In this document: one piece after another, positions 13,386-35,995 of the stretch
How positions within the stretch are numbered: position 1 is the stretch's first letter
How the letters are laid out: the number at the start of each line of letters is the position of its first letter
Origin: Candidatus Omnitrophota bacterium
GTDB lineage: Bacteria > Omnitrophota > Gorgyraeia > Zapsychrales > Fredricksoniimonadaceae
Direction of reading: 5' to 3'
Length of the DNA: 64,000 nucleotides
Assembly: GCA_903908245.1 (NCBI GenBank)
Contig: CAIVRE010000030.1
Location: 11,857 to 75,856 of the forward strand
The notes under the pieces: generated by a model
Told to the model about the DNA's origin: nothing
Seen by the model: the letters and a program-made list of their open reading frames with translations, nothing else
The model's database searches: none
Position numbers and translations under genes: made by a program

Positions 13386-13440
13386 CCCTCAAGAAGAATA
13401 GAAAAAACAAATCCTTGCCGCCAGAACAGGCATTTATGCC

Positions 13441-16262: not shown

Positions 16263-16274
16263 GCCCTTTGCATT

Positions 16275-17393: not shown

Positions 17394-17434
17394 TTGTCCT
17401 TTCCAAATATTTCAGGCTTTTCCCGCCTGTCGTA

Positions 17435-20158: not shown

Positions 20159-20206
20159 CAGATCGTCCTTATCCGCTTTAAGCCCTGTGGGATCAACCTT
20201 TTCACC

Positions 20207-21685
20207 TTAATGCGCCCCGGCCTCTTCCAACAAAGTAACGCCAAAAACATCGCGCAAAATAACCCGGGCAATATTCCCGGCCAACATGGTGTTGCCCAGG
20301 TCCGTACAATGGCCAAAGTCCCCGGCGAACCTGTCCCTGAAAACCTGCTCGAAACGGTATTTCTTCAACGCATCCTTGAACAGCCTTTCATTATCGACAA
20401 AACTGACATTCTGGCGTTGGTCCGCAGGGAAAATCTGTTTTAACGGCTCTATATTGCGCATGGCATACTGCACACACACAAGGCGGATCCCGTGCTGATC
20501 GAGCAATTTCTTTATTTTATGGTAATTTTCCACAGTCACCGACGCATACCCTTGCGGCGCTACGGCATACCCCCGCGCAAGATAATCCTCACTCAAATCA
20601 AATTTCCCAAGGACACGGTAAACATGAGCCAGGCCGAAATAAGGGCTGACATCAATGATCCCACCCGGCTTATTAAGCTCTATGGATTCTTTATACCGCA
20701 CCACCGCCTCATCATACCGGCCCTGCGCCGCGGCCACTTCCCCGGCGAACAGGCTTATCCATCCGGCATGACAATGATCCATAAGGGCCTTCAGCAAAAC
20801 TTCCGCTTCTGCATACTTATGCATGGCGATCAATTGGACAAATAGCATCCTCAGGTCCCCGCTCTCTCGAGGGCATAACACAAATTCTTTTTTATATTTC
20901 TCGATCATCCGTTCGAGCATCTTTTGCTGCTCTTTCGGCTCACACAGCCACATCAACCTGAAATAAGCATCGGAATTCCCGGGATTGATCCTGATGGCCT
21001 TATGGAACGCAAATTTTGCCGCATTGACCTTGCCCTGAGCGTTAAGCTCCATACCGCGTTTCACATAAAAACTGTCATCTCCCGGCGACACAACCGCCGG
21101 CTGCGGCATTGTTGCGCCGCCTGAGGCAACGGGCAACACCCCTGGTCGAGGCTCTCCTGGCGCCTCCTGCTTCTTTTCCCCCCACTTAGCCTGAATATGC
21201 AGGCCAAGCAATTGCATAAGCTTGTATGTTTTTAAAGCCTGGAAAAAATTCTGCCCGTGCGCATTGAACCCGGCGGGCATGTGCCTGGCACCCGCGTCAT
21301 TAATGCCGATCATGGCCACCACCGCATCAGGCCTGTATTTTCTGATATTACTCTCCATCCTTTCAAGGATAAGATCCGTATTGGTCGCCGACAAACCTTC
21401 ATCAATAACGCTGAACTGTGTTTTGATCCGCTGGGCATTGAGGATCTTTTCAAGGAACCGCGGGTACTGCCCCTGCGTCGTCGATTCCCCGACACACATG
21501 ATCCGGTAGGCCGCCCCGTTCTTACTAGCGGACCAATTCTTGTACTGCTGTACAGCCAGAATAACAAAACCCGCTGTCTGCAGCCCTATTTCAAGAATGA
21601 CCAAAGTAAGGAATACGCCAAACAACATCAGCGCTATTCTCTGGCCTGGAGAACTTACCGTTGGGGGTTTTTGATCCTTTTCCAT
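20207..21685 (-). CDS. membrane-anchored SGNH hydrolase with inserted TPR repeats (paralog 2)
   Basis: TM helix, CVGESTT, GIND, DFGHCT blocks and TPR repeats; collinear with 4898-6193 and 21721-23208. Confidence 0.75.
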   Translation of the reverse strand: MEKDQKPPTVSSPGQRIALMLFGVFLTLVILEIGLQTAGFVILAVQQYKNWSASKNGAAYRIMCVGESTTQGQYPRFLEKILNAQRIKTQFSVIDEGLSATNTDLILERMESNIRKYRPDAVVAMIGINDAGARHMPAGFNAHGQNFFQALKTYKLMQLLGLHIQAKWGEKKQEAPGEPRPGVLPVASGGATMPQPAVVSPGDDSFYVKRGMELNAQGKVNAAKFAFHKAIRINPGNSDAYFRLMWLCEPKEQQKMLERMIEKYKKEFVLCPRESGDLRMLFVQLIAMHKYAEAEVLLKALMDHCHAGWISLFAGEVAAAQGRYDEAVVRYKESIELNKPGGIIDVSPYFGLAHVYRVLGKFDLSEDYLARGYAVAPQGYASVTVENYHKIKKLLDQHGIRLVCVQYAMRNIEPLKQIFPADQRQNVSFVDNERLFKDALKKYRFEQVFRDRFAGDFGHCTDLGNTMLAGNIARVILRDVFGVTLLEEAGAH

Positions 21686-21720
21686 AAAATCCGCTCCATT
21701 GAACAGGACACTTCCGAGAT

Positions 21721-23208
21721 CTATCTCATCTTCAAGACTTCTTTTATAACAACACCGGCTATCTGCTCCGCCAAAAGCTTATTCCCCAGACTGGTGCAAT
21801 GCCCGAAATCACCTCCGAACATATCCAGGAAATATTCATGGATATGCCCGCCAGCTACCGCCGCTTTGAACACCCCCTCATTATCAACAAAAAAAACTCC
21901 GTCCGAGGACGCAAAGATCTTCTTAAGCACCGAGACTTTACGCATGGGATACTGCACGCAGACCAGCTTGATCTTTCTTCGATCCAATATCGCCTTCAAA
22001 TTCCGATAATTTGTAACAGTAAACAAACTGTAGAAATCATCGTCCAAAGACTTTACCGTCGGCTCATAAACCGCGGCCTCTTTGGCCTTCCCCATCTCCT
22101 GATAAAACAGCATCAACCTTCGATAACAACGGTCATTCTTCGGGTTTTTTTCGATATACCATTTTAATTCTTTCTCGGCATCGGCATATCGCTTCTGGAT
22201 CATATAAATATAAACCAAAGAAAAAGTCACATTCTCGTTTTTATTATTGAAAAACTCCGCCTTCTTATACGCCGCTTCCGCCTGCTCATATTTCTTCTGA
22301 AACAAATAAAGATCTCCCAATGAGCAATATACCACTGCATCACCGGATGTTAATTCAATGACCTTTAATAACAAGGCCTCCACAGACTCCCAGCGGTTGG
22401 TGCTCCTATAGATCCATGACAACCCGTAATAAGCCTGGGCATTCCGGGGGTTCTTTGCCAAAACCTCATTGAACGCCTTCTCTGCCTGTTCCTGGTCCCC
22501 CCTCGAAAAAGCATCCCACCCGTCGGATAAGAACTTCTGTTCATCCGCCGAATGACGGCCGCCCGAAACACCAAGGAGCTCCTGACCGCTTGAAAGCCCA
22601 AAATTCTTCAATTTCTTCCCTTTTACCTCCGCCGGCGGCTCAGACAAGCCAGGAGCCTGCACGGCAGAAGGCTTTGCCGTACGGATCTCTTGCATTTTTG
22701 CTGTCAAATGAAGCCGCAAGAATCGAGCTAATTTACAAACACGCAAAGAGAACAACCACTGAACAAACCCCGATGAACCCTTTACCTGCTGCGGCATATG
22801 CAGCCCCTGATCGTTGATCCCCATCATCACCACGACCAGGTCCGGCTTATATTTATCCAGATTCACTTCCAGTTGCTCCAGGATCACATCGGTGTTAACC
22901 GAAGGCATCCCTTTATCAATAACGCTAAATTTTATATCCTTACCACGACGATTAAGCGCCTCTTCAAGAAAAGGGGGATATTGCTTTGCGGTAGTAGACT
23001 CCCCCAAACACATAATACGATAACCATTGGCCCTTAAAGAACGCAAATTCTCGGACTCCTGAAGAAAATAGAATATTGCGCCGCCTATACGCAGCCCTGA
23101 TTCCAGAAGGACAAGACACAGGAATATCCCGAATAAAACAAGCCCTGTTTTCTGCAATAATGTCGTCCTGAACTCACTGCGCGGCTCATTGCTCATAAGA
23201 TCGATCAA
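21721..23208 (-). CDS. membrane-anchored SGNH hydrolase with inserted TPR repeats (paralog 3)
   Basis: TM helix, CLGESTT, GINDQG, DFGHCT blocks and TPR repeats. Confidence 0.75.
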   Translation of the reverse strand: MIDLMSNEPRSEFRTTLLQKTGLVLFGIFLCLVLLESGLRIGGAIFYFLQESENLRSLRANGYRIMCLGESTTAKQYPPFLEEALNRRGKDIKFSVIDKGMPSVNTDVILEQLEVNLDKYKPDLVVVMMGINDQGLHMPQQVKGSSGFVQWLFSLRVCKLARFLRLHLTAKMQEIRTAKPSAVQAPGLSEPPAEVKGKKLKNFGLSSGQELLGVSGGRHSADEQKFLSDGWDAFSRGDQEQAEKAFNEVLAKNPRNAQAYYGLSWIYRSTNRWESVEALLLKVIELTSGDAVVYCSLGDLYLFQKKYEQAEAAYKKAEFFNNKNENVTFSLVYIYMIQKRYADAEKELKWYIEKNPKNDRCYRRLMLFYQEMGKAKEAAVYEPTVKSLDDDFYSLFTVTNYRNLKAILDRRKIKLVCVQYPMRKVSVLKKIFASSDGVFFVDNEGVFKAAVAGGHIHEYFLDMFGGDFGHCTSLGNKLLAEQIAGVVIKEVLKMR

Positions 23209-23214
23209 TTGCCC

Positions 23215-24408
23215 CTATCCGATATTCTTTAACTTCTTTTGCAGGATCTCCCTGGAAACCCTTATCTCTTTTAGCAACTCGACACATTGAGACTTGTCCG
23301 CTCCGCGCCATAACACGAACCAAAGCCTTGCCTTATTGGCTATCTTTCCAAGAACATATTTCGCGTTCTGATACACCCGATAATACATCCTCTTATAAAA
23401 ACTCCATGTGCCAAGCTTTTGCGCTTTCAGCGCGATAAGCCGATCGAATTCAGGCTTTCCAAAATTCTGGTCATAACAGCTCATCATGCATCCGCCACAA
23501 CCTTTTGTCACTATCTCCCGGCGCAATTGATCATGCTTCGGCGAGCCCCAGATCGCGGACAATCTTTTCCCCTTAACATTACCGATAACCCTGTTCGACA
23601 ATACCCAGCAGGGATAAACATCTCCCCCCGCCGAGACAGGGCACGAACTGAAGATCGCTGAACAGCCTTTCTGCTCCGCATTGATCCTGGCCTCTCCGCA
23701 CAAATAGGAAGGGATATTCTGAAGATACTCCGAAGGATTGGTCATGATCCTGTATTCTTTTGCCAGCCGCTCCACTTCCGCCATGCTTCGCTCAATATCT
23801 TCCCGCAGCTCTTTTGGCGCAAAAAATCCCGACCGGATCGCTTTGTCTTTTATAAAAATATCGCTGAAAGGCTGGAACTTTACCGTCGTAACCCCGAATT
23901 GATGCGCCAGCTCGATCACCCGCGGCAACGCCGCATAGTTCTGCCGGCTGACGATCGAAGCGATCGTTGTTTCGATCTTATACCTGGAAAGATTTCTCAA
24001 AGCATCCACGGCTTTGACAAAACTTCCTTTCCCTCTTAAAGAGTCGTGTGTCTGCTCATCTCCCTCGATCGAAATATTAACAACCCCGATCCCGGCCAGG
24101 CTCAGTTTATGCGCCACTTCATCCGTCAGTAAAGTACCATTGGACGCCAGGCAGGTATTGATCCTCGACCGGCTGACAGAAGCGATCAGGTCAAAAATAT
24201 CTTCACGCAAGAGCGGCTCACCGCCGCTGAACACAATACTGCGCGGGCAAAGCCGGACAGCGTCCGCGATCAGGCACTGCATCTCTTGCGCGCTTAATTC
24301 CTCATTGTTGCCGGATCCCGGGATCTGGCACATCGCGCAGCGCAAATTGCAGCGGTTCGTGATCGACAGGATCACTTCATTTAGCCGGTGTTCCATAGTG
24401 TTTATCAC
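23215..24408 (-). CDS. radical SAM/SPASM-domain protein
   Basis: ITNRCNLRCAMC; Gly-rich FSGGEPLLR; C-terminal Cys cluster (CSAIFSSCP...CWVL...CGGCMMSC). Confidence 0.8.
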   Translation of the reverse strand: MINTMEHRLNEVILSITNRCNLRCAMCQIPGSGNNEELSAQEMQCLIADAVRLCPRSIVFSGGEPLLREDIFDLIASVSRSRINTCLASNGTLLTDEVAHKLSLAGIGVVNISIEGDEQTHDSLRGKGSFVKAVDALRNLSRYKIETTIASIVSRQNYAALPRVIELAHQFGVTTVKFQPFSDIFIKDKAIRSGFFAPKELREDIERSMAEVERLAKEYRIMTNPSEYLQNIPSYLCGEARINAEQKGCSAIFSSCPVSAGGDVYPCWVLSNRVIGNVKGKRLSAIWGSPKHDQLRREIVTKGCGGCMMSCYDQNFGKPEFDRLIALKAQKLGTWSFYKRMYYRVYQNAKYVLGKIANKARLWFVLWRGADKSQCVELLKEIRVSREILQKKLKNIG

Positions 24409-25552
24409 CTAAAACGACCTCTTCATATTTATCCATTGAACCGATCCCCTCTTCCAGCGCCTGCCTCTTTTCCGCCTTTGTCAATGATGAACGGTCCAAC
24501 GCTGTCACAAAATCATTCACGACCATCTTTAAAGAATCCGCCCCCGGCCGCGCCCAGCATGTTTGCAGGCACGGCTTATCGCACGCGCGCATTCGCTCCC
24601 TGGCCATCCTCGCGCTCTCCGTATGCAGGCAATCATTCAGGCTCATATCCTTGATATTGCCGAACGAGGGGCCGCAACTGCGCACAGCACCGTCGGGACC
24701 GACATCAACGAATACGAAAGGATTACACTTCCAGTCGCTCTTGGTCAGCGAACCCTGAAAATATCCTAACCACTGGTAAGGATCATGCAGGAATGCGACC
24801 AGGCCGGAGCTCTTCTGATATTCAACGATCCGGTCGACCTGGCTTTTAAAAACGCCCAGCAATTCCGGCGTGATCCAGAGCCCCCCGCCTTTGATGGTGT
24901 TCTGCATATCGGCTTGCGCCACGATCACCGGATGATACACCAGGCATTCCACCCCAACCTCCCTGGCCAAAGGAATGATGTCGTATAACTCATGAACGTT
25001 CTCTTTCATCATGGTGACCCAGGCCGAGATCTGCGGGCCATGCGAGGCCTTCTTTTTCTCCTCAGACAAAAAACGCAACGCCCTGATCGCCTTAGAATAA
25101 GCCCCTTCCGTCCCCCGGATATAGTCGTGCGTCCTGGCACAGGCCCCGTCGAGAGAAACCGCAATATTGCTCAGGCCGGAGTCAATGACCCTGGCCGCGA
25201 ATTGCGGAGTATCAATGAGGCTGCCGTTGGTCACTGCCTCGGTCTTCAGACCCAACGAAACCGAGTAACAAATGATCTCAAAAATGTCTTTTCTTAAAAA
25301 TATCTCCCCGCCGGTGAACAGGACCGTGCAATCCGTCCCCCAGCCGGCCACTTCATCCAGGCTCTTTTTTAATACATTTATGTCCAGCTCCTGGTCCTGC
25401 AGGACCTTCTTTACCCCGCACATCTGACAATTAAAATTACACTTGTGCAATAAGCTGAAAAAAACCCAATACGGCCTGGCGAAAGGCCGGTTCAGAGCTT
25501 CGGAAAAATAATAATCCAGGTTCTTCTGAAATTCACCGACGATATTGGACAT
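24377..25552 (-). CDS. radical SAM/SPASM-domain protein
   Basis: HKCNFNCQMC; FTGGEIFLRKD; C-terminal Cys-rich region (CNPFVF...CGPSF...CDKPCLQTC). Confidence 0.8.
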   Translation of the reverse strand: MSNIVGEFQKNLDYYFSEALNRPFARPYWVFFSLLHKCNFNCQMCGVKKVLQDQELDINVLKKSLDEVAGWGTDCTVLFTGGEIFLRKDIFEIICYSVSLGLKTEAVTNGSLIDTPQFAARVIDSGLSNIAVSLDGACARTHDYIRGTEGAYSKAIRALRFLSEEKKKASHGPQISAWVTMMKENVHELYDIIPLAREVGVECLVYHPVIVAQADMQNTIKGGGLWITPELLGVFKSQVDRIVEYQKSSGLVAFLHDPYQWLGYFQGSLTKSDWKCNPFVFVDVGPDGAVRSCGPSFGNIKDMSLNDCLHTESARMARERMRACDKPCLQTCWARPGADSLKMVVNDFVTALDRSSLTKAEKRQALEEGIGSMDKYEEVVLGDKHYGTPAK

Positions 25553-25575
25553 GGCATTGACTTCTTGTTGTTATT

Positions 25576-27486
25576 TTAATCACAAAAACACGGCAGCAAA
25601 CACGGCCAGTGGCATTTCCTGGCCGCCGCCCTGGCCTTGACGATCTGAGGCCCCATCATGATCTCTTTAAGCGTTTGCTTGCGAATATCCCCGTAAGCTG
25701 AAAAACAGGTGGTGCACATCCCCTGGTTGGAGACCAGGATCGTTTTCTCTCCCGAATGGCACTGGACATCATCGCAGGTCAAACTGCCGCGGTAATATTT
25801 CTTCATCAGCTCAAGATTCCGGGCCGAGTTCTTTATAAATCCGGGGGCTTCTTCTTTCAACTTTTTAAGCTGATCAAGGGAATTATCCAACAAAGAAAAC
25901 CTTTCTTCCTTGACCCAGAACGGAGAATGCTTCCTTTCCGCCATCATCAGATTGTTGGGCAGCAAAGCCTGGAATTGCAGGGAATTGGCCCCCAGCGACC
26001 TGACAAAATCCACCAGCGCGGCCAACTCTTCCAGGTTCTCATTAAAGATGATCGTGATCAGATTGAAATTCACCTGCGGATGCTTCCTCTTGAGCGCCGA
26101 AAGCGCCTGCAGCCCCTGGACCGTTTCCTGCCAGGCTGTATCGGAATTCCTGACATGATTATGCGTCTTTGCCTGCAAGGAATCCAGCGAAACGACCGGA
26201 GCAATGGTGCCGTCCAGTAAATATGGCTCCAACCGGTCCATATATTTATTGATCAATATGCCATTGGACAGGATCCCCAAGTTCTTGATCCCGATCGACC
26301 GGGCGTGATCCATGATCTCAAAAATATCTTTTCTTAATAAAACCTCGCCGCCGGATAAAGCGATCTCCGCAAAGCCCGACTCTTTCCCCTGGGACAGCAT
26401 GCTCCTGACACTGTCCAGATCCATATCTTTCTCATCCCGGGACGTTTTCCAGATATCGCAGATCCGGCAGCTTAAATTACAGGCATGCGTGATGTCCAAT
26501 ATCAGCAGGTTCGGACGGTCCGCCTTTTGCGGCCGCTCCTTTTGTATCAGATCAGCGCCGGCCCTGAAAAATTCCACGATATTGCCCGCGATATAAAAAA
26601 CCTTGTGCAACGCAAAAAGAGCGAATACAGCCGCTTTCTTTAAAGGGTGCCTGATCTTGTGTTCATGGATCAGCGCCGTCCCAAGCCTGCAGCTGAACCA
26701 GGGGATCTTAAGGCTATTGATCAATGTCGCTGCCCAGAACTCCAGCGTCCCTGTCCTCAATTCCTTGAGCAAAGGATGATCACGGTGTAAATACGCGACA
26801 AGATAATTCCCCCTGCCGTATTTATACGCCTGGTCCGCACAGCTGCGCAGCGTGTCCTCGCGATAATGGGTCACGCGGATGTCTTTGTTCCAAATGAACC
26901 TGTGCCCTTTCTTATAAAGCCGCCAGGACAGCTCCAGGTCTTCACCGCCGGGCAACGGAAAATCCTCGTTGAATCCTTCCGCTGCCAGAACATGCCGTTT
27001 GAACGAAACATTGCATGTAGGAAAAAATATCGTCTCCCGGCTCCCCTTGATCTCCGTCTCAATGCTGCCATTGGCCAGGAACTGCCCCAGGAGCACCGGC
27101 GCTCTGTCGGTAGCCGTCACCGTTAATCCGCCGATCGCGGCGATACCGGGATTCTCTTCATGCGCGCGCGCCATGGACCCCGCCCAATCGGCCGCGGCGA
27201 CACAATCATCGTCGATAAAACAGATGACCCCTCCCCGGGAATGTTTGATCCCAAGGTTCCTCGCGACCGCGGGGCCCTGATGATCCTGGGTGAGGCACTT
27301 AAGATTCGCATGCCCGATCCTTAACTGATCGACCAGGCTGTTTGTCGCGGGACTGCCGCCATCATTGACCACCACGATCTCTATCGCGTCCTGAGGATGA
27401 TCCTGGGCAAACAGCGAAGCCAGGCACCGGGCCAGCATTGCATCCCGGCCGCGCGTAGGAATAATGACGGAAACCTGAACACTCAT
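25576..27486 (-). CDS. bifunctional fusion: N-terminal GT2 glycosyltransferase (~310 aa) + C-terminal radical SAM/SPASM domain (~320 aa)
   Basis: N-terminus VSVIIPTRGRDAML...VVVNDGGS...FIDDDC (GT2). From ~aa 320: ILDITHACNLSCRICD (Cx3Cx2C), LSGGEVLLRKD, C-terminal CDDVQC...CTTCF...CHWPCLLPCFC. One uninterrupted 636-aa ORF. Confidence 0.8.
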   Translation of the reverse strand: MSVQVSVIIPTRGRDAMLARCLASLFAQDHPQDAIEIVVVNDGGSPATNSLVDQLRIGHANLKCLTQDHQGPAVARNLGIKHSRGGVICFIDDDCVAAADWAGSMARAHEENPGIAAIGGLTVTATDRAPVLLGQFLANGSIETEIKGSRETIFFPTCNVSFKRHVLAAEGFNEDFPLPGGEDLELSWRLYKKGHRFIWNKDIRVTHYREDTLRSCADQAYKYGRGNYLVAYLHRDHPLLKELRTGTLEFWAATLINSLKIPWFSCRLGTALIHEHKIRHPLKKAAVFALFALHKVFYIAGNIVEFFRAGADLIQKERPQKADRPNLLILDITHACNLSCRICDIWKTSRDEKDMDLDSVRSMLSQGKESGFAEIALSGGEVLLRKDIFEIMDHARSIGIKNLGILSNGILINKYMDRLEPYLLDGTIAPVVSLDSLQAKTHNHVRNSDTAWQETVQGLQALSALKRKHPQVNFNLITIIFNENLEELAALVDFVRSLGANSLQFQALLPNNLMMAERKHSPFWVKEERFSLLDNSLDQLKKLKEEAPGFIKNSARNLELMKKYYRGSLTCDDVQCHSGEKTILVSNQGMCTTCFSAYGDIRKQTLKEIMMGPQIVKARAAARKCHWPCLLPCFCD

Positions 27487-27503
27487 CGCATTTATCCTTG
27501 AAT

Positions 27504-28283
27504 TCAGATCTTCTTTAAAATACCGGGTTCGAATTTAATGAATATCGCCAGACCCAGGGACAAACTGGCCATCGCGAATAACACGACCTGAATGAATACC
27601 GCCGGCCCCGGCAGCACCCCTTCGAAAATGATCTTTTGATAGAAAGCGATATACGGCGTCAGCGGATTGACGTTGTATATCCAATGGAACTGCGCGGGGA
27701 CCATTGCCATCGAATAAAAAACAGGGGTGACCCAGAACCAGAACATCAGTACCACGCTTAAAAGATGCTCAATATCCCGAAAAATAATATTGAGAACAGA
27801 TAACGCCAGGCAGAGACCCGCCGTTAAACAAAGAAGCAGGACAAAGATCAGCGGGAGCAGCCAGGCCAGAATAATGATCTTTGGATTAAAGAACAGGAAG
27901 ATCGGGTACATCACGACCCAACCGATAAGAAAATTAAGGAAATTCGCGATGACCGATGCCAGCGGAAAGATCACAACAGGGACATTGTATTGCCGCATAA
28001 TGCCCTGTCGATTCAATATGGAAGCGGGCGCCTCGGACAATGCGTTCGAAAAGAACATCCACGGGATAATGCCTGACAGGACAAAGAACGGATAATTGGC
28101 AATGCCGGCCTTAAAGACCTGGGTAAAAACAAAAGCGATCGCGGACATGATCAAAAGAGGATTGATGACCGCCCAGAAGATCCCCAAAAGAGAGCCGGCA
28201 TACCGGCTCCTCAATTGCGCGATCGACAGGCTCCACAACGCATGTCGAAAATAAAAAATGTTTTTAACCAAACCTTTATCCAT
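27504..28283 (-). CDS. wzm: ABC-2-type polysaccharide-export permease (Wzm/KpsM/TagG-like)
   Basis: 259-aa polytopic membrane protein with the ABC-2 pattern (FWAVINPLLIMSAIAFVF...). Confidence 0.8.
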   Translation of the reverse strand: MDKGLVKNIFYFRHALWSLSIAQLRSRYAGSLLGIFWAVINPLLIMSAIAFVFTQVFKAGIANYPFFVLSGIIPWMFFSNALSEAPASILNRQGIMRQYNVPVVIFPLASVIANFLNFLIGWVVMYPIFLFFNPKIIILAWLLPLIFVLLLCLTAGLCLALSVLNIIFRDIEHLLSVVLMFWFWVTPVFYSMAMVPAQFHWIYNVNPLTPYIAFYQKIIFEGVLPGPAVFIQVVLFAMASLSLGLAIFIKFEPGILKKI

Positions 28284-29577
28284 GGGCCAACCGCTCCCCG
28301 GTCTTTATCCCGTCGAGGATCGCATCTTCCATCGACATATAACGCCAGCTCCCGTAGCGCCCGCAAGTCAGGACCCGATGCGCCTGGAGGAACTTGAGGA
28401 TCTCCCCCCGCGCCGCCGCATAACCCTTGTCATACACAGGATAAGCGTACTCAATATCATTGATGTCGCGAACAAGCACCGCATCGCCCGCTGACAGCAA
28501 TCCGACTTTCTCCAGGTCCTGTTCAATGCGCGCAACGATCCCGGCCTTATCCAGCGGTTTCTGCCTGGAATACGAAACCTCCGCGTACAAAGAGCTTTTC
28601 CCCGCCGGAACAAGATCGGACGAGAAATTATGATAAAACCCCACCCGAAAAAAGCTGATATCTTTCTGTGGAAAATAGGCCCAATGTTTCTTGCTCGGAC
28701 AGGCCTGCCGCAACCCGAGGTTCAAATTGAACAGGGAGTTCCAGCGCAAACGGCCGAACGCGGCCTTGATCCCCCTGGGCAGGCCGCTGATCATGCCGGA
28801 CAATTCCGGCAGGGGGATCGTCGAGACCAAATGAGCGTAATCCTGCTTCACGCCATTGGAAAACTCGACCCGCTGCTTCTTCAGGTCGATCGTCCGGACC
28901 TTAAACCCCGTATGGATATTATCCAGGCCCGCCTTTAACGCCCGGGGAAGCGCTTCGATCCCGCCTTTGCGGGGATACCAGAAATGCGCGTTATAACCCA
29001 AAGGCTCCTGCCGGCCCGGACCGCCGGACACCTGGCGCAGCGTGGGTTGAGGCACAAACCCTTCCGTCCAGGCGCACGTCATCATCCTTGGAGAGACCGT
29101 CCAGAACTTCGTGTTATACGGGACCATAAAATGCTTCGCGATCCCGTCCCCAAACGTCCCCTTGATCCAGCGCGCAAGGTCCGCACCCGCCTTTACACGC
29201 GAACCCCGGCGCGCCTTGATAAAACCGTCAAGGCACTCTTTCCGGACATTGTCCGGCAACGCCGAAAGATTGGCCTGAAAAGGATACCCGATGAACCGCT
29301 CATGCGAATAGACCCAAGCGCTTCTCTGATGCCCCGCCAGGCCTTCTTTCAGCAATCCATTGACCAGGCCCAAAGACCCTTTATGCCTGAAATGGAGCAA
29401 ATGTCCGTCGATATCAAACGTGAACCCTTTGGCCTTCCTTGACCGGCACAACCCCCCGACCTCAGGTTCTTTTTCATAAACATGGCACGCCTGCCCCTGC
29501 CCCTGCCCCTGCAGATGCCTGGCCGCGCTCAGGCCCGCCAGCCCCGCGCCAAGGATAACATACCCCTTATCTGTCAT
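28276..29577 (-). CDS. FAD/NAD(P)-binding oxidoreductase, UDP-galactopyranose-mutase-like
   Basis: N-terminal Rossmann GxGxxG (VILGAGLAGLSAA), EKEPEVGG; resemblance to Glf/amine-oxidase folds. Precise function uncertain. Confidence 0.5.
   Translation of the reverse strand: MTDKGYVILGAGLAGLSAARHLQGQGQGQACHVYEKEPEVGGLCRSRKAKGFTFDIDGHLLHFRHKGSLGLVNGLLKEGLAGHQRSAWVYSHERFIGYPFQANLSALPDNVRKECLDGFIKARRGSRVKAGADLARWIKGTFGDGIAKHFMVPYNTKFWTVSPRMMTCAWTEGFVPQPTLRQVSGGPGRQEPLGYNAHFWYPRKGGIEALPRALKAGLDNIHTGFKVRTIDLKKQRVEFSNGVKQDYAHLVSTIPLPELSGMISGLPRGIKAAFGRLRWNSLFNLNLGLRQACPSKKHWAYFPQKDISFFRVGFYHNFSSDLVPAGKSSLYAEVSYSRQKPLDKAGIVARIEQDLEKVGLLSAGDAVLVRDINDIEYAYPVYDKGYAAARGEILKFLQAHRVLTCGRYGSWRYMSMEDAILDGIKTGERLAHG
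29491..29512. repeat. hexanucleotide microsatellite (ctgccc)x3.5 encoding GQGQGQ in the oxidoreductase
   Basis: Seen directly: ctgcccctgcccctgcccctgc. Confidence 0.7.
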
Positions 29578-30553
29578 TGCGCTCCGCCTTCATCAGCACC
29601 CTGAAGAAAATATAACTTGTCAGCAAGACCGCCAATATCAACAGCCCGCCCGCCCAGTCATCGCATTGGCTAAGAATGATCCCGCAAACCGCGGCGAACA
29701 ACGACAAGCCCAGCAGGACCAACAACGCGCTTTTGCGCGTCAGGCCCAGCGCGACCAGCCGAAGCGCCATATGATCATCACTTTTATTGAACGGAAGAAT
29801 GCGCTTGCTGCAACGAAAATAAATAAGGACGGCTGTTTCCAGAAGAGGGACCCAGAACAGAAGGATCGGGCTCAATAACGCGACCGGCTCACCCCTTCTG
29901 GCATAACTGACCATTAACGCCAATGCCGCCAGGACAAACCCCAGGAAATGGCTCCCGGCATTGCCCAGATAGATCCTTGCCGGAGGAAAATTAAAGAACC
30001 CAAAACCCGTGATCACCGCGAAAAGGCCCAGCGCCAATATCCGGGCATTCACATCGGGATAAAAGAACGTAAGGGCGAATATGGCCCCTGTCACCGTCAA
30101 GGCCACGCCGGCGCTTAACCCGTCGATGACGTCGAGCAGGTTAAAGGCATTGGTGATCCCGATGATCCACAAGAACGTGACCAGGGCATTACCCCAGTCA
30201 TTAAGATAGATCATATGCGTCCTGACATCGATCAGGATCAGCACGACCGCACATACAGACTGCAGCAGGAGCTTCTGGACAACCGACGCCTCTTTCAGGT
30301 CGTCCATCACCCCGAACGCCAGCATCGCCAGGGATATGCCCAGGACACTCATGATCCTGCCGGGATCAATGCCGAAACCAATAACCCCTAGGACAGAGGA
30401 AACCACCAGAGCGCCGCCTATCCCGATCCCGCCGACAAGCGCGATCTCGCCGGATACCAGGACACGGGTCCTGAACGCCAGGCGGCGCAACACCACCATC
30501 AATAACAGGCTGCAAACCAGTGCCGACGAAGCGACCAGGTAATATTTAAACAT
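29567..30553 (-). CDS. polyprenyl-phosphate N-acetylhexosamine-1-phosphate transferase (WecA/WbpL/MraY family, GT4 membrane)
   Basis: Polytopic membrane protein with VMDDLKE and NAFNLLDVIDGLSAG motifs. Confidence 0.8.
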   Translation of the reverse strand: MFKYYLVASSALVCSLLLMVVLRRLAFRTRVLVSGEIALVGGIGIGGALVVSSVLGVIGFGIDPGRIMSVLGISLAMLAFGVMDDLKEASVVQKLLLQSVCAVVLILIDVRTHMIYLNDWGNALVTFLWIIGITNAFNLLDVIDGLSAGVALTVTGAIFALTFFYPDVNARILALGLFAVITGFGFFNFPPARIYLGNAGSHFLGFVLAALALMVSYARRGEPVALLSPILLFWVPLLETAVLIYFRCSKRILPFNKSDDHMALRLVALGLTRKSALLVLLGLSLFAAVCGIILSQCDDWAGGLLILAVLLTSYIFFRVLMKAERNDR

Positions 30554-31709
30554 TCACCGCCCGCATGTTCGAATAAAGCGCCTCGATCTTCCGGACCGCA
30601 TGACCGGAAGTGAACTCGCTGCCCGCAATAAATTCGGCAGCTCTTCGGGATACCGTCATCCTCAGCTCAGGGTTTCCCAATAATTCCAGGACCCTGTCCC
30701 GCATACCCCGGATATCTCCTGTCGGGACCAGGTATCCGGTATCCCCCTGCACAATAACATCCCGAATGCCTCCCGTATCAGTCGCGACCACCGCAACACC
30801 GGCCGCCATGGACTCCAGGACAGCGACCGGAAGGCCTTCCCATAACGATGTCAGGACGAACACATCCAGGGCGGAAAGGACGGACCCGACATCCCGCCGC
30901 CAGCCCGTCAATACAATATCCTTCTCCAACCCGGCCTCACGAACAAGCGCGGTGATCGCGCCGCGCAGGATCCCGTCACCAGCCAGCACAAACTTTACGC
31001 CTGGCAATGCCGTCTTAAGTTCAGCCGCCAGCCTGATAAAATCCAGCGGCGCTTTCTGAGGCTTGAAACAGGCGACCATCCCGACCACAAGGTCCAGCTC
31101 ACCGAACCCGAACTCCCTGCGCGCCCGTCCGCGCTGATCTTCACGCTTAAAGTCTTCCCTGTTGATGCCGCAACGAATGACGCAATAGCCCTCAAGAGGA
31201 ACGATCCCGTTCTCCCGCCCCCGCTGTTCATCCCGCGCCGAAACCACGATCAATCGATGGGTAAATCCGGCACAAAACTTTTCCAGGAACAGGAACGATC
31301 GATAAATCCATCCCGATTGATGCTCATGAAAACTCCAGCCATGAACGGTATGAATGATCCGCCTGACCCCGGCCGCCCCGGCCGCCAGCCTGCCCAGCAC
31401 CCCGGCTTTTGAACTGTGCGTATGGACCAGGCCTATCTTATTTTTTTTTATAAAGAAATACAAAGAAATAAACGTAAAAAGATCCCTGAACGGATCGATA
31501 CGGCGCTCCAGGAAAGGCGAACGGAAAACACTCAAACCCGCGATGGCCAAAGCCTCGTCGACCAGGAACCCGTCCCGCGCGGTAAAAAGAAAAACATTGA
31601 ACTTGCGGCGGTCAATGCCCCGGATCAGGCTTAATAAATGCGTTTGAGCTCCACCCAGCTCAAGCTTGGTGATAACATACAGCAAATTGATCTTGGTCTC
31701 TGTCACCAT
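30546..31709 (-). CDS. GT4 (group 1) glycosyltransferase
   Basis: LLYVITKLELGGAQTHLLSL...; C-terminal EGLPVAVLESMAAGVAVVATDTGG motif. Confidence 0.8.
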   Translation of the reverse strand: MVTETKINLLYVITKLELGGAQTHLLSLIRGIDRRKFNVFLFTARDGFLVDEALAIAGLSVFRSPFLERRIDPFRDLFTFISLYFFIKKNKIGLVHTHSSKAGVLGRLAAGAAGVRRIIHTVHGWSFHEHQSGWIYRSFLFLEKFCAGFTHRLIVVSARDEQRGRENGIVPLEGYCVIRCGINREDFKREDQRGRARREFGFGELDLVVGMVACFKPQKAPLDFIRLAAELKTALPGVKFVLAGDGILRGAITALVREAGLEKDIVLTGWRRDVGSVLSALDVFVLTSLWEGLPVAVLESMAAGVAVVATDTGGIRDVIVQGDTGYLVPTGDIRGMRDRVLELLGNPELRMTVSRRAAEFIAGSEFTSGHAVRKIEALYSNMRAVNV

Positions 31710-31756
31710 GACTGTCCGGCCTTGAAAATAAGCATATCTGATATAATACTTTAATT

Positions 31757-32923
31757 ATGTTTATATTATTACTATTTTTTATAACTCTCCGGCCGTTCAT
31801 CTGTTCTTTTGCCTTTCTTGAACCCGAGATCATTTATGCGACACTGCTGTCCCTCTTTCTTCTTTCCTGGATATTTATAAAGAAGATCGAGCTGGCGACC
31901 TCCCCCAGGATGACCATCGCCCTTTCCCTGTTCCTGCTTGCCCTGGCCGTATCCCTGATATTCTCCAAAAACCAGATGTTCGCGGCCATCCACACCTGTC
32001 AGTTCATTAACGGCCTCCTGCTTTTCCTTGTTTGCCGATCCCTGCCCCGTGAAAAGATCCCTGCGGTCCTGCTGTCAATGCTGATAACCGCCCTGTTCAT
32101 TTGCGCCCTGGCATTATATCAATCCTTCGGAAAGGCACCCGAAGCCCTCACATCAAAAAATATCATCGACCAGATAGGCATCACTTATATCGAACAACAC
32201 CGGGCCTACGCTCCTTTTATCACACCCAACGCGCTGGGGGGCTACCTCATCCTCATCATCCCCCTTGCCTTCACCCTCAAAAACCGGGCCTGGCTGGCGG
32301 CCCCCCTGATCCTTACCCTCCTCCTGACCAAATCCCTGGGAGCGATCATCAGTTTCACCGCAGCCACAACACTATATTTTTATTTTCAAGGCAACTTAAA
32401 GAAAAAACGCATGAGGACTATCCTGCTCGGGCTTATCGCCGGCGCTCTCATCATCTTCCTGATCAGGGCACAGGCGAACCAGCACATATTCCAGCCATCA
32501 TTCTCTGTTCAAATGCGCCTGGAATACTGGCGGCTAACCTGGAAACTCATCAGCGCATATCCTTTAACAGGAACAGGCCCGGGCTGTTTCGACCTGCCCG
32601 ATGCGCGCTACACCCACAATTCTTACCTGCAGCTCTGGGCAGAAACAGGGATAATAGGCATAACATCTTTCCTTTACCTGCTGTTTACCCTGTTCAAATC
32701 GGGACGGGGCATCTTAAAAGAAGGGCTTGATAAAAACCTGGCCGCCGGATTAATATGGGCCTCCGTCGGCTTCTTTATCCACAACTTTTTTGATTTTACG
32801 TTCTTTCTGCCGGAAGTTTCGTTTATGTGTTGCGTTGTCCTGGGGTTGCTCTTGAACCGCTCGCCCCTCTCCGGCGCAGCGCTGATAAAAGATAATGGCA
32901 CCGGGCAAGAAAGATCCCGATAA
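31757..32923 (+). CDS. O-antigen ligase/polymerase-like membrane protein (Wzy_C domain)
   Basis: ~10 predicted TM helices; HNSYLQLWAETGIIG-type motif. Only plus-strand gene; AT-rich divergent promoter region 31710-31756 shared with the GT4 gene. Confidence 0.7.
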   Translation: MFILLLFFITLRPFICSFAFLEPEIIYATLLSLFLLSWIFIKKIELATSPRMTIALSLFLLALAVSLIFSKNQMFAAIHTCQFINGLLLFLVCRSLPREKIPAVLLSMLITALFICALALYQSFGKAPEALTSKNIIDQIGITYIEQHRAYAPFITPNALGGYLILIIPLAFTLKNRAWLAAPLILTLLLTKSLGAIISFTAATTLYFYFQGNLKKKRMRTILLGLIAGALIIFLIRAQANQHIFQPSFSVQMRLEYWRLTWKLISAYPLTGTGPGCFDLPDARYTHNSYLQLWAETGIIGITSFLYLLFTLFKSGRGILKEGLDKNLAAGLIWASVGFFIHNFFDFTFFLPEVSFMCCVVLGLLLNRSPLSGAALIKDNGTGQERSR

Positions 32924-33806
32924 CACGCGGCCGGAACACAACCACATAGCCCCATGCGCACAGGTCATGGACGAGCATCGGGACAAAATGCAACACGAAC
33001 CCGAAAAACGTTTCGTTCTTGATGATCGCAAGATAACGGTTCTTGATCAGGTCGGCATGAAGGTCATCGCTTAAATACTGCCGCGCGAAAGACCTAGCCG
33101 ATCCGGGATCCACACGCACCGATCCTCCCCGCGCATGATACGCCAGCGCCGAAGGGATATAATACGCCCTCCACCCATTCCTGTTGGCCCGCCAGGCAAG
33201 ATCTAAATCTTCATTGAATATCCGGAAATCAGGATCGAACCACCCCGCGGCTTCCTTGACCTGATCTAGCATCTTTTTACGATAAAAAGCCACGGCCCCG
33301 CCGACACCGAAAACAACCTCTTCCTGCCCGAACTGCCCGTGATCCGGCCTGCCGTAACCTCGTTCCATGGCAGTCCTCCAGACACTCAGGAACAAGCCCG
33401 TACTGTCCACGGTCTTTTTATCCTGCCGCAGGACCTTGCCGCTCACCATCCCGATATCCCCGCTGAACAGGAACCCCCCGAGCGCTTCCCCGATAAAATG
33501 ATCGTCGAGGACCACATCATCGTTCAAACACAAGACAAACTCCCCCCGGCTCATGGCAATGCCCTGATTCATGGACCCGCAATAAAAAAGATTCGTGGAA
33601 GAAGCGTGCACCCTCAGGGACGGGCATAATTCCTGCGCCCTGCGGCTTACGGCAGGGTCAAAAGAATTATCGATCAGAATAATATCAAGAAAAGGATGTG
33701 TTTGCCTGTTAACCGACTGAAGGCAGGAAATAAAATAATCATTCTTCCCGCAGGTGACAACAACAACTGAAACCAGCTTGTCCATATTAAAACCTTGTGC
33801 CGACAC
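32823..33806 (-). CDS. family 2 glycosyltransferase
   Basis: LVSVVVVTCGKNDYFISCLQSV...ILIDNSF...LNDDV; its 3' end overlaps the convergent Wzy-like gene by ~100 nt. Confidence 0.8.
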   Translation of the reverse strand: MSAQGFNMDKLVSVVVVTCGKNDYFISCLQSVNRQTHPFLDIILIDNSFDPAVSRRAQELCPSLRVHASSTNLFYCGSMNQGIAMSRGEFVLCLNDDVVLDDHFIGEALGGFLFSGDIGMVSGKVLRQDKKTVDSTGLFLSVWRTAMERGYGRPDHGQFGQEEVVFGVGGAVAFYRKKMLDQVKEAAGWFDPDFRIFNEDLDLAWRANRNGWRAYYIPSALAYHARGGSVRVDPGSARSFARQYLSDDLHADLIKNRYLAIIKNETFFGFVLHFVPMLVHDLCAWGYVVVFRPRVIGIFLARCHYLLSALRRRGASGSRATPGQRNT

Positions 33807-34880: not shown

Positions 34881-34905
34881 TATTATCTCCGATACGAACT
34901 GACGC

Positions 34906-35976: not shown

Positions 35977-35995
35977 AGCGGCTTGATCCGACCTG

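Follow-up and report, generated by a model that had tools for sequence, protein, structure and literature searches.

A GT2 glycosyltransferase–radical SAM fusion protein in Omnitrophota and its conserved gene cassette

Does a single open reading frame of Candidatus Omnitrophota join a glycosyltransferase to a radical SAM enzyme, and what might such a protein act on? The question arose from the initial annotation of a 64,000-nucleotide stretch of DNA (the window), in which one gene was read as a full GT2 domain followed by a radical SAM core and a SPASM-like tail. The gene and its parts are listed below.

25576..27486, minus strand: GT2–radical SAM fusion gene, 636 aa plus stop (ORF listing, Pfam, homologues)
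26851..27486, minus strand: GT-A catalytic core of the GT2 half, residues 1–212 (Pfam, invariant columns, Foldseek GT2 matches)
26554..26850, minus strand: conserved helical extension, residues 213–311 (AF2 model pLDDT 88–98; conservation 0.65)
26521..26553, minus strand: inter-domain hinge, residues 312–322, DLIQKERPQKA (pLDDT <50; low conservation; site of gene splitting in loci L052 and L055)
25807..26520, minus strand: radical SAM core, residues 323–560 (Pfam, invariant columns, model, BlsE as top match)
25579..25806, minus strand: C-terminal auxiliary-cluster (SPASM/twitch-like) tail, residues 561–636 (Pfam, conservation, model)

One polypeptide carries both enzymes

The gene encodes a genuine single-polypeptide fusion of a GT2 glycosyltransferase and a radical SAM enzyme with intact catalytic motifs. 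According to the ORF listing, it is one ATG-started frame of 636 codons with zero internal stops, with an AAGGA Shine-Dalgarno-like motif 11 nt 5' of the start codon, and it lies 17 nt from wzm upstream and 23 nt from the next radical SAM gene. The GT2 half (residues 1–311) and the radical SAM half (residues 323–636) are separated by an 11-residue variable hinge, and the quoted motifs were located at 27205–27213 (DDD), 26458–26481 (CNLSCRIC) and 26344–26355 (SGGE). Two genes might have been falsely joined by chimeric assembly or through a frameshift that escaped notice: the halves lie in different frames in two related genomes (L052 and L055), and at least one apparent frameshift occurs elsewhere in the window, in a carbamoyltransferase gene. 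Against this, six contigs of independent assemblies bear the identical 636-aa product, 113 further full-length homologues (627–670 aa, 45–73% identity) have the length and architecture of the fusion, and GC3 is the same in the two halves (0.66 vs 0.67). The chance of such an artefact is, in our judgement, negligible, and the uninterrupted frame proposed in the initial annotation stands.

In 114 aligned sequences, the invariant positions include D42, D92, D94, E182 and D183 of the GT2 half, and C336, C340, C343, S378-G-G-E381, C576, C594, C625, C629 and C633 of the radical SAM half. The fusion is found in about 52 species-level genomes, down to 39% identity, mostly of Ca. Omnitrophota; a few belong to DPANN archaea and one is a CPR metagenome-assembled genome (MAG). 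It is a widespread family, already present in databases under the name 'glycosyltransferase', and is not unique to the window. No NCBIfam model reached its cutoff for the fusion or for any of the radical SAM neighbours, no characterised GT2–radical SAM fusion was found in the PDB, and no description of one was found in the literature, most subscription-journal work being beyond reach, so that absence is not proof. As far as these sources go, they agree with the earlier remark that no such fusion has been characterised.

The GT2 half matches Glycos_transf_2 (PF00535) over residues 6–157 with 88 bits (cutoff 23.3), and its GT-A core contains the invariant D42, the DxD motif D92/D94 and G181-E182-D183 (26935–26946), as expected of the full GT2 domain that had been claimed. 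The AF2 model shows a GT-A fold with pLDDT above 90, and the top Foldseek matches are all GT2 enzymes (HAS, PcManGT, AvpGT, TarP and K4CP). On these grounds, it is best read as a predicted inverting, metal-dependent GT-A glycosyltransferase. Its best family match is the EpsD-type GT2 model (NF041875), which spans both core and extension (fusion residues 5–299 against profile positions 1–303 of 325), and the second-best NCBIfam match is the mycofactocin glycosyltransferase MftF (TIGR03965). Both scores lie well below the cutoffs (138 bits vs 370 for EpsD, 131 bits vs 280 for MftF), and neither family carries a fused radical SAM domain.

The core is followed by an extension of three helices in the AF2 model (residues 213–233, 247–275 and 281–315) with the invariant residues Q219, Y223, G224, G226, N227, H294, K295, Y298 and G301. 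This region, which lies beside the hinge, is conserved to the same degree as the catalytic cores, and the GT2 half aligns across core and helices with the membrane-associated GT2 enzymes HAS and PcManGT. The moderately hydrophobic extension is possibly a membrane-interface element. A transmembrane helix was considered and not called: the hydropathy of residues 286–306 is borderline (Eisenberg <H> 0.60; best 19-residue KD window 1.71), and the invariant H294-K295 pair falls in the middle of the helix.

The radical SAM half and its cysteine-rich tail

Since a fold search with the full-length model returned GT2 matches only, the radical SAM half was modelled on its own (pLDDT 94.4, pTM 0.91). The model has the partial (β/α)6 TIM-barrel fold, and Radical_SAM (PF04055) matches residues 332–495 with 71.9 bits (cutoff 29.5). 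The core carries the cluster motif CX3CX2C (C336/C340/C343) within CNLSCRIC, and S378-G-G-E381. The initial annotation had named failure of this half to match radical SAM profiles as grounds for rejecting the fusion; the match is clear.

By three methods, the closest solved relative of this half is BlsE (PDB: 7vob), the cytosylglucuronate decarboxylase/dehydratase of blasticidin S biosynthesis; DesII and viperin likewise rank high in both match lists. In BlsE, too, a C-terminal cysteine motif has been proposed to ligate a second cluster (PMC3715490). However, BlsE is only 19% identical to the radical SAM half, its tail motif is CxCxxC compared with CX12GX4C...CX3CX3CXC in the fusion, and it is a stand-alone, soluble enzyme of an antibiotic pathway with no fused glycosyltransferase. 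The score of the fusion against the BlsE family model (NCBIfam TIGR04466) is 60.1 bits vs a cutoff of 400. The relation is one of resemblance only, and the comparisons suggest a radical SAM half of the sugar-acting type.

The tail folds as a β-hairpin plus helices in the AF2 model and contains two groups of cysteines, C576-x12-G589-x4-C594 (25705–25761) and C625x3C629x3C633xC635-D636 (25579–25614). Five of these cysteines (C576, C594, C625, C629 and C633) are present in 114/114 sequences and C635 in 109/114; C571, by contrast, shows no conservation, and C591 occurs in 53% of homologues. The first group agrees with the first half of the SPASM motif, CX9-15GX4C, both cysteines being invariant and G589 at least 90% conserved. 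In the SPASM enzymes, the second half canonically reads CX2CX5CX3C...C. This arrangement is absent from the tail, which ends in CX3CX3CXC and has six conserved cysteines in total, compared with 7–8 in SPASM and 3–4 in twitch domains (PMC9477430). The Pfam profile of the SPASM family (PF13186/TIGR04085) matches residues 576–626 of the window copy with 18 bits, short of the cutoff of 21.5, which two homologues pass (P0125, 33 bits; P0126, 27.4 bits). The fusion shares the fold, the CX9-15GX4C motif and the following β-hairpin and helix after the radical SAM core with the SPASM/twitch enzymes anSME, SkfB, SuiB, PqqE, BtrN and MoaA, and differs from them in the position and spacing of its last cysteines, in their number and in having no RRE. 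The earlier description of a radical SAM core with a cysteine-rich, SPASM-like tail thus needs qualification in its second part: the first half-motif is there, and the tail as a whole is non-canonical.

The conserved cassette and the class of substrate

The genes around the fusion bear on its likely substrate. Those of the window are as follows, with the number of loci in which a counterpart was found.

30546..31709, minus strand: GT1-type (GT-B) glycosyltransferase (19/29 loci)
29567..30553, minus strand: WecA/MraY-family polyprenyl-phosphate sugar-1-phosphate transferase, WecA-like GT4 (PF00953, 106 bits; 21/29 loci)
28276..29577, minus strand: FAD enzyme, homologue of eukaryote-type UDP-galactopyranose mutase, UGM (4dsg, E 5e-51, residues 6–424; 23/29 loci)
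27504..28283, minus strand: Wzm-type ABC-2 permease, immediately upstream of the fusion (Pfam PF01061, 49.7 bits; 28/29 loci)
24377..25552, minus strand: radical SAM/SPASM partner rS_24377, immediately downstream of the fusion (BlsE as best PDB match)
23215..24408, minus strand: radical SAM/SPASM partner rS_23215
17435..20158, minus strand: Wzt-type ABC ATPase, 907 aa, with a C-terminal extension of about 670 aa (27/29 loci; long C-terminal region homologous in 26/29)
16275..17393, minus strand: radical SAM/SPASM partner rS_16275, closest paralogue of the radical SAM half of the fusion (26% identity, E 3e-38)
13441..16262, minus strand: two B12-binding radical SAM genes, 13441–14949 and 14844–16262 (B12-binding radical SAM genes in 26/29 loci)
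7037..8566, minus strand: third B12-binding radical SAM gene

The counts refer to 29 loci at species level whose flanks reach 7 kb or more on both sides and are approximate, as neighbours were labelled by best hit with the window's own proteins. All 29 loci contain other radical SAM genes of either type (median 6 within ±10 kb, range 3–9), and the best-conserved co-travelling partner is rS_24377, with 420–494 bits in DPANN and Omnitrophota loci. The canonical order is GT1-GT4-FAD-Wzm-Wzt-fusion-radical SAM genes; in the window, wzt is displaced from its usual place beside wzm. Six of the 29 loci lack the UGM homologue and eight lack the GT4, in some cases perhaps because the gene lies beyond the 10-kb flank. 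This conserved multi-radical-SAM cassette is, as a whole, more striking than the fusion itself.

The cassette has the parts of a Wzm/Wzt system, namely an ABC-2 permease with a Wzt-type ATPase, and a polyprenyl-phosphate primer with GT1 and GT2 glycosyltransferases. The nucleotide-binding domain of the ATPase matches the Aquifex O-antigen Wzt (E 6.7e-65). Its C-terminal region (668 aa) has no Pfam match at E≤1, no PDB sequence match, no BLAST-detectable internal repeats and no recognisable Wzt carbohydrate-binding domain. The gap at 11866–12305 holds two hydrophobic small ORFs of 55 and 76 aa, which resemble DUF5989 and partner ORFs adjoining the carbamoyltransferase in another locus (L004); the carbamoyltransferase of the window is the gene with the apparent frameshift. 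The two ORFs were considered as RiPP precursors and are not precursor-like.

The radical SAM/SPASM half and its SPASM neighbours might instead mature a RiPP or, like anSME, a protein, which the GT2 half would glycosylate in the manner of SunS/ThuS or MftF. The SPASM-type enzymes SkfB, SuiB, anSME, PqqE and CteB are indeed close structural neighbours, MftF is the second-best NCBIfam match of the GT2 half, and the B12-binding neighbours match RiPP C-methyltransferase models, albeit below cutoff. The RiPP and MftF models, however, all score far below their cutoffs, and an RRE would have no place, as the radical SAM core begins directly after the hinge in the fusion and at residues 15–39 in its neighbours; no RRE/PqqD Pfam match occurs in the locus. 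The operon is tight, with only the two hydrophobic ORFs in the sole sizeable gap examined, the exporter is of the Wzm/Wzt type with no peptidase or peptide-type exporter, and the conserved neighbours are the WecA-like GT4, the UGM homologue and GT1. We consider a peptide or protein target improbable. Because of the WecA-like GT4, the UGM homologue, GT1 and Wzm/Wzt, and with neither an RRE nor a precursor peptide, the context favours a carbohydrate substrate, as the initial annotation had argued for the radical SAM enzymes of the locus.

Among known ABC-transporter-dependent galactan and O-polysaccharide pathways are the mycobacterial WecA-Glf-GlfT1/GlfT2-Wzm/Wzt pathway and the Klebsiella O1/O2 wzm-wzt-glf-wbb pathway. 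Such pathways (cf. PMC10951656) share with the cassette a WecA-type primer, a UDP-galactopyranose mutase homologue, one or more GT2 enzymes and a Wzm/Wzt exporter. They differ in that here the GT2 is fused to a radical SAM enzyme with 3–9 more radical SAM genes beside it, the mutase is of the eukaryotic type, and the Wzt carries the uncharacterised C-terminus in place of a recognisable Wzt_C domain. We know of no pathway of this kind with radical SAM enzymes, and none was found for Wzm/Wzt/UGM glycan loci in the literature within our reach, which excludes most subscription journals.

A precedent for the order of reactions comes from the hopanoid cyclitol ether pathway and from calditol synthase (Cds). 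In the HpnI–HpnJ and Cds systems, a sugar is first transferred to a lipid-linked acceptor and then altered by a radical SAM enzyme, with a ring contraction proposed after hydrogen abstraction (PMC13459092). The enzymes of the hopanoid cyclitol ether pathway (HpnI, HpnK, HpnJ) and Cds are separate proteins, their products are lipid head groups rather than exported polymers, and HpnJ is a B12-domain radical SAM enzyme; the likeness of these systems to the fusion is a mechanistic analogy only. Since HpnJ and Cds act on lipid head groups, these precedents could also be taken to mean that the target of the radical SAM half is the polyprenyl carrier or a lipid of the membrane, altered by C–C chemistry of the Tes/Mss/Hbs type, and that the GT2 half supplies a sugar as head group, yielding a glycolipid rather than a polysaccharide. 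Omnitrophota have been reported to possess the lipid radical SAM enzymes Mss and Hbs (bioRxiv 10.1101/2023.10.20.563219), and the GT2 half resembles the DPMS-like PcManGT. Yet Tes comes lower in the ranking than BlsE and the SPASM enzymes, with an alignment restricted to the core (TMq 0.51), the several glycosyltransferases and the Wzt-type exporter are typical of polymers, and the cassette contains no lipid-synthesis genes; a lipid target strikes us as very improbable.

Linkage of the halves and a proposed function

The hinge is poorly conserved: the top-residue frequency is 0.12 with 43% gaps, and the spacing between E305 and P325 varies between 10 and 25 residues across homologues. With a full-length pTM of 0.58 and a disordered hinge (pLDDT<50), the AF2 model does not fix the relative orientation of the domains. 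In L052 and L055, the halves are adjacent genes, cut exactly at the hinge; in a further natural split form, a Methanosarcinales MAG (L063) encodes the orthologous halves as separate genes within one cluster. Conversely, P0107 and P0126 are larger fusions retaining both orthologous halves. Such recurrence as split genes and larger fusions indicates, by Rosetta-stone logic, that the two halves are functionally linked.

Whether linkage extends to catalysis is a separate matter. The halves may be independent enzymes of one pathway, acting at non-consecutive steps and joined by compaction in very small genomes, the tether serving co-expression or co-localisation. The disordered hinge of variable length and low conservation, the low full-length pTM and the split forms are consistent with this reading, as are the stand-alone members of the same radical SAM clade (P0125, P0129 and P0130) and the ultra-small nature of the hosts (PMC10066038). 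On the other hand, several GT2–radical SAM architectures have arisen, including one in which the orthologous radical SAM enzyme is joined to a different GT2 (P0122) and a distant lineage with the order GT2-radical SAM-radical SAM, which points to selection for the pairing as such. Moreover, the fused state has been kept across the roughly 52 species, also after transfer to archaea, and conservation of the extension adjoining the hinge matches that of the catalytic cores. A fusion with no catalytic coupling is, to our mind, rather unlikely, though it carries real weight. Of the physical coupling of transfer to radical chemistry that was first claimed, the single polypeptide is secure; with a variable, disordered hinge and natural splits, coupling as such is no more than possible, and the fusion may give co-localisation or stoichiometry only, not channelling.

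On balance, we favour the reading that the fusion is a bifunctional enzyme of a conserved, radical-SAM-rich cassette for a surface glycan, probably furanose-containing, that would be assembled and exported by the Wzm/Wzt route. The WecA-like enzyme would prime polyprenyl phosphate, and the UDP-galactopyranose mutase homologue would provide a furanose nucleotide sugar. The GT2 half, presumably kept near the membrane by its helical extension, would move a sugar onto a lipid-linked acceptor. At the [4Fe-4S] cluster of the CX3CX2C motif, the tethered radical SAM half would cleave SAM reductively, and the 5'-deoxyadenosyl radical would take a hydrogen from a sugar carbon, either of the nucleotide-sugar donor just before transfer or of the lipid-linked residue just after it. 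The electron could be handled by one or two auxiliary Fe-S clusters bound to the six cysteines of the tail, and the sugar might undergo a redox change or a rearrangement of the BlsE, DesII, BtrN or Cds type, such as dehydration, oxidation, ring contraction or epimerisation. Five to nine other radical SAM enzymes, SPASM-type and B12-type, would then tailor the glycan before export by Wzm/Wzt.

More tentatively, the cassette might represent an undescribed class of glycan pathway with the fusion as its signature enzyme, in which a Wzm/Wzt-exported, furanose-containing surface polymer is built by transfer paired with radical chemistry and then rewritten by 5–9 further radical SAM enzymes; we regard this as possible but less likely than not. 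If it were so, the rewriting could comprise C-methylation, ring contraction to carbocycles, C–C cross-links or deoxygenation, a surface carbohydrate chemistry so far without precedent among the glycans of cell envelopes. The cassette would then have passed between ultra-small lineages with an episymbiotic or predatory way of life (Omnitrophota, DPANN archaea and CPR), and could set host attachment or resistance to host glycosidases.

Radical SAM enzymes are known to modify the sugars of antibiotics, cofactors and lipid head groups; in the building of polysaccharides for export to the cell surface, to our knowledge, hardly any have been described. From the cassette one would expect, in Omnitrophota and some DPANN and CPR organisms, a family of surface glycans that bear modifications installed by radical chemistry. 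These lineages have essentially no cultured representatives that we know of, and their dependence on hosts is believed to be governed by the biology of their cell surfaces. With 636 residues, well-defined motifs, a confident model and relatives in which the halves are naturally split or built into larger fusions, the fusion offers a compact entry to its enzymology, and could reveal new carbohydrate radical chemistry and serve to test whether such a fusion channels reactive or unstable sugar intermediates.

Reading frame and modular architecture of the fusion

The GT2-radical SAM (rSAM) fusion is encoded by one ORF with a single ATG start and no internal stops. An AAGGA motif lies 11 nt 5' of the ATG, and the gene is placed 17 nt downstream of the preceding gene and 23 nt from the following one. 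The ORF and the three motifs quoted in the initial annotation, all present, are:

25576..27486 (-): GT2-rSAM fusion ORF, 636 aa (ORF listing)
27205-27213: DDD motif, GT2 half
26458-26481: CNLSCRIC motif, rSAM half
26344-26355: SGGE motif, rSAM half

Both Pfam domains score above their cutoffs (Glycos_transf_2 at residues 6-157, 88 bits against 23.3; Radical_SAM at residues 332-495, 71.9 bits against 29.5), and the initial reading of a single polypeptide is thus borne out. No stop or frameshift separates the domains, and the identical 636-aa product recurs on six contigs from independent assemblies (ENA ERZ27313096, ERZ18626558, Logan ERR4193360, NCBI). In the three places shown, the identical ORF is followed by the same rSAM gene and, wherever the contig reaches, preceded by an ABC-2 permease. 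The two halves are also alike in GC3 (0.66 and 0.67). Together, the six contigs and the matching GC3 rule out an assembly or frameshift artefact. We consider the fusion almost certain to be a real, conserved bifunctional protein.

The full-length AlphaFold2 model (114 homologues) has a mean pLDDT of 91.9 and a pTM of 0.58; its sole low-confidence stretch is residues 312-322 (pLDDT <50), while the C-terminal half modelled by itself reaches a pLDDT of 94.4 and a pTM of 0.91. The prediction is therefore one of two well-defined modules joined by a hinge, whose mutual orientation the model does not give. The conservation profile agrees with this architecture, and the E305-P325 spacing varies from 10 to 25 residues across homologues.

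Conservation of fusion regions (mean top-residue frequency over the 114-sequence alignment)
GT-A core: 0.50
Helical extension of the GT2 half, residues 213-311: 0.65
Hinge: 0.12, gaps 43 %
rSAM core: 0.68
Cys-rich tail: 0.65

Invariant in the alignment are D42, D92 and D94 (DxD) and E182-D183 in the GT2 half, and C336, C340, C343 and S378-G-G-E381 in the rSAM half; every catalytic element expected of the two halves is covered by these residues. The helical extension has invariant residues of its own (Q219, Y223, G224, G226, N227, H294, K295, Y298, G301) and is moderately hydrophobic (KD maximum 1.71; Eisenberg <H> 0.60 for residues 286-306). It is a possible membrane-interface element, short of a proven transmembrane helix.

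The tail, initially described as SPASM-like, deserves that name in its first half: C576-x12-G589-x4-C594 matches the CX9-15GX4C hallmark of SPASM and twitch domains, and a predicted beta-hairpin and helix come next in the model. The second half is non-canonical, C625x3C629x3C633xC635 at the extreme C-terminus in place of CX2CX5CX3C...C, and the Pfam SPASM model scores 18 bits on residues 576-626, below its 21.5-bit cutoff. Of the tail Cys, five show no variation (C576, C594, C625, C629, C633) and C635 is kept in 96 % of sequences; C591 is found in just 53 %, and C571 lacks conservation. With six conserved Cys, the tail falls between twitch domains (3-4 Cys, one cluster) and SPASM domains (7-8 Cys, two clusters; PMC9477430).

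Homologues and linkage of the two halves

The fusion is no singleton but one member of a widespread family. A large-database search returned at least 120 full-length homologues (627-670 aa, identity 45-73 %), all with PF00535 and PF04055, under generic source names such as 'glycosyltransferase [Candidatus Omnitrophota bacterium]' or 'MoaA/NifB/PqqE/SkfB family radical SAM enzyme/GT2 family glycosyltransferase'. The closest non-identical relative (73 %) is from the Omnitrophota MAG GCA_043803685.1, which makes an Omnitrophota genome the most likely origin of the window. A scan of species-representative genomes gave 175 relatives at 70 loci; about 52 of the genomes have the fusion ORF intact. 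Almost all hosts carry the label Omnitrophota, and several TPA MAGs the label Planctomycetia or Planctomycetales; beyond these there are one Paceibacterota MAG (L032) and three DPANN archaeal MAGs (Woesearchaeota L048, Nanoarchaeota L049 and L062; identity 39-40 %).

For the rSAM half, three methods ranked BlsE, the sugar-acting enzyme of blasticidin S biosynthesis, first (PDB 7vob; phmmer against PDB sequences, E 1.7e-13; Foldseek TM 0.72/0.70 over 343 columns), with DesII (TDP-sugar) and viperin (CTP) as further prominent neighbours. The BlsE substrate is cytosylglucuronic acid, on whose glucuronic acid ring the enzyme works, and the C-terminal CxCxxC of BlsE was proposed by its discoverers to bind a second cluster (PMC3715490). 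Two rSAM/SPASM partners in the window are similar: BlsE is the best PDB match of rS_24377 (24377..25552, -; E 7e-16) and the second-best of rS_23215 (23215..24408, -). The GT2 half is nearest by sequence to chondroitin polymerase K4CP and to 9jma, deposited as GalNAc5-diNAcBac-PP-undecaprenol beta-1,3-glucosyltransferase. Structurally, its GT-A core and helices are closest to hyaluronan synthase (aligned over 390 columns) and to the DPMS-like mannosyltransferase PcManGT (TM 0.61, target-normalised), both membrane-associated GT2s. The best NCBIfam models for this half, EpsD (138 bits, residues 5-299) and MftF (131 bits), score far under their cutoffs.

The two halves also occur in other arrangements. 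A Methanosarcinales MAG (L063) encodes orthologues of the GT2 half (331 aa, 242 bits) and the rSAM half (389 aa, 301 bits) as separate genes in one rSAM-rich cluster. In two Omnitrophota loci (L052 and L055, 59-60 % identity) the GT2 gene has its own stop exactly at the hinge and the rSAM follows in another frame. That two such breaks would arise by random error within one ~30-nt stretch of a ~1900-nt gene is unlikely, but both could stem from a single ancestral fission, and sequencing error is also conceivable. Both orthologous halves are kept in larger proteins, GT2+rSAM+rSAM (P0107) and B12-rSAM+GT2+rSAM (P0126); in P0122 the orthologous rSAM (54 %) has another GT2 (25 %) as its fusion partner, and proteins of 1100-1500 aa in a distant lineage have the order GT2+rSAM/SPASM+rSAM. 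These several independent observations indicate that the halves are functionally linked, and the repeated joining of a GT2 to this group of rSAMs speaks for selection on the pairing as such. Physical coupling of the two chemistries, as first suggested, is plausible; the hinge is floppy, however, and split forms are viable, so that a fixed active-site tunnel between the domains is only a possibility. With these three caveats, on tail, coupling and family breadth, the initial interpretation was largely right.

The glycan locus and its conserved cassette

The fusion lies in an almost unidirectional glycan locus of ~35 kb (774..36117). Its genes encode two NAD-dependent epimerase/dehydratases, a GT2, a Wzy_C-domain protein (+ strand), a GT1 and a WecA/MraY-family GT4; an FAD enzyme, the permease Wzm, the fusion and two rSAM/SPASM enzymes; two GDSL+TPR proteins, a 907-aa Wzt and another rSAM/SPASM enzyme; two B12-rSAMs, a WbuX-like amidotransferase and a carbamoyltransferase; two more GT2s, a third B12-rSAM and a third GDSL+TPR protein; and two DegT aminotransferases and one further rSAM/SPASM enzyme. 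Eight radical SAM domains are present, five SPASM-type (counting the fusion) and three B12-type.

The FAD enzyme (28276-29577, -) matches eukaryote-type UDP-galactopyranose mutases (UGM) almost from end to end (4dsg, E 5e-51) and resembles those of T. cruzi and Aspergillus, whereas the bacterial Glf model TIGR00031 gives only 29.5 bits. A eukaryote-type UGM is unexpected in bacteria. The Wzt (17435-20158, -) nucleotide-binding domain matches Aquifex O-antigen Wzt structures (E about 1e-64). Its C-terminal extension of ~670 aa (residues ~240-907) found no counterpart in Pfam, at a cutoff as loose as E<=1, or among PDB sequences, yet is homologous in 26 of 29 related loci, whose Wzt proteins have 905-929 aa; a novel module for glycan recognition, in place of the usual Wzt_C carbohydrate-binding domain, is one possibility.

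Other features of the locus were noted:

10215-10781, 10813-11865 (-): carbamoyltransferase interrupted by a frameshift, the ORFs for its N-terminal part (350 aa) and C-terminal part (188 aa) lying in different frames with 31 nt between them; one intact 580-598-aa protein in L004 and L068, so either a pseudogene or a sequencing error here
11889-12056, 12069-12299 (-): two ORFs for small hydrophobic proteins of 55 and 76 aa, flanked by the WbuX-like and carbamoyltransferase genes, resembling DUF5989 and partner ORFs adjoining the carbamoyltransferase in L004
4898-6193, 20207-21685, 21721-23208 (-): GDSL/SGNH hydrolase-like N-terminus with C-terminal TPR, three paralogues, possibly glycan O-acyl transferases or esterases; outside the canonical cassette (3/29 loci)
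2799-3710 (-): 303-aa ORF between the DegT genes, no significant Pfam match (best E 0.02)
13441-14949/14844-16262 (-): B12-rSAM ORFs overlapping by 106 nt
34906-36117/35996-37132 (-): epimerase and dnaJ ORFs overlapping by 122 nt; both overlaps are likely due to over-extended GTG/ATG start calls
35996-40452 (-): canonical hrcA-grpE-dnaK-dnaJ heat-shock operon, marking the cassette edge

To count gene context, the window proteins were searched against six-frame ORFs from every fetched locus; the counts cover the 29 species-level loci in which the fusion has at least 7 kb of flank on both sides.

Cassette components among the 29 loci
Wzm: 28
Wzt: 27
B12-rSAM: 26
UGM homologue: 23
WecA-like GT4: 21
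GT1: 19
Other rSAM genes: 29 (within +-10 kb, median 6 of either type, range 3-9)

The fusion thus resides in a WecA/UGM/Wzm/Wzt glycan cassette (21-28 of 29 loci), canonically ordered GT1-GT4-FAD-Wzm-Wzt-FUSION-rS_16275-like-B12-rS_24377-like-rS_23215-like-(GT2)-B12, where rS_16275 is a third rSAM/SPASM partner. The window holds a rearranged version, with wzt moved ~5 kb downstream. Some related loci carry up to nine additional rSAM genes in succession, or double-rSAM proteins (e.g. 786 aa, L003 15110-17470). A ~722-aa protein with a Glyco_hydro_44 match lies between wzt and the fusion, overlapping the fusion start, in L002 (7864-10032) and L005 (7177-9348).

The DPANN loci pair the fusion with orthologues of the window's SPASM partners (rS_24377-like, 421-447 bits; rS_23215-like, ~280 bits); the module therefore moves as a unit. 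SPASM and B12 partner orthologues accompany the fusion in L048, L049 and L062 (Woesearchaeota/Nanoarchaeota) and in L032 (Paceibacterota, CPR). The pattern points to the entire module having passed horizontally between ultra-small, host-dependent lineages, with mis-binning as the alternative.

Proposed chemistry and significance

In the fusion sequence the inverting-type GT-A and radical SAM active sites are intact and the auxiliary Cys set is conserved. The protein very probably works in an ABC-transporter-dependent glycan pathway. A peptide substrate is disfavoured because no SPASM-type enzyme of the locus leaves room for an RRE, the locus has no plausible precursor ORF, peptidase or peptide exporter, and the conserved neighbours are glycan-assembly genes. 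We lean towards a sugar as the substrate.

The GT2 half would extend a polyprenyl-PP-linked acceptor at the cytoplasmic membrane face, plausibly from a furanose donor made by the UGM homologue. The rSAM half would abstract a hydrogen atom from a sugar carbon. That sugar could be the nucleotide-sugar donor, by analogy with BlsE, DesII and viperin, whose substrates are nucleos(t)ide-linked, or the residue just transferred. The auxiliary cluster or clusters would accept or donate an electron. Dehydration, oxidation, epimerisation and ring contraction are all conceivable outcomes. Glycosyl transfer followed by radical chemistry on a lipid-linked sugar has precedents in HpnI-HpnK-HpnJ and in Cds, which, unlike the fusion, are separate proteins only (PMC13459092).

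The domains individually come from well-known superfamilies, and export follows the scheme used for ABC-transporter-dependent O-polysaccharides and galactans. As initially supposed, NCBIfam, the PDB and full-text literature searches yielded no characterised GT2-radical SAM fusion; nor did they yield a Wzm/Wzt glycan pathway with radical SAM enzymes, let alone six to ten, and the Omnitrophota genome papers checked do not mention the fusion. The sequence itself is not new, since the family is already in public databases under generic names; the uncharacterised part is the fusion architecture and its cassette. What really makes the family interesting is its glycan cassette, which is conserved, rich in radical SAM genes, horizontally mobile and carried by ultra-small prokaryotes.
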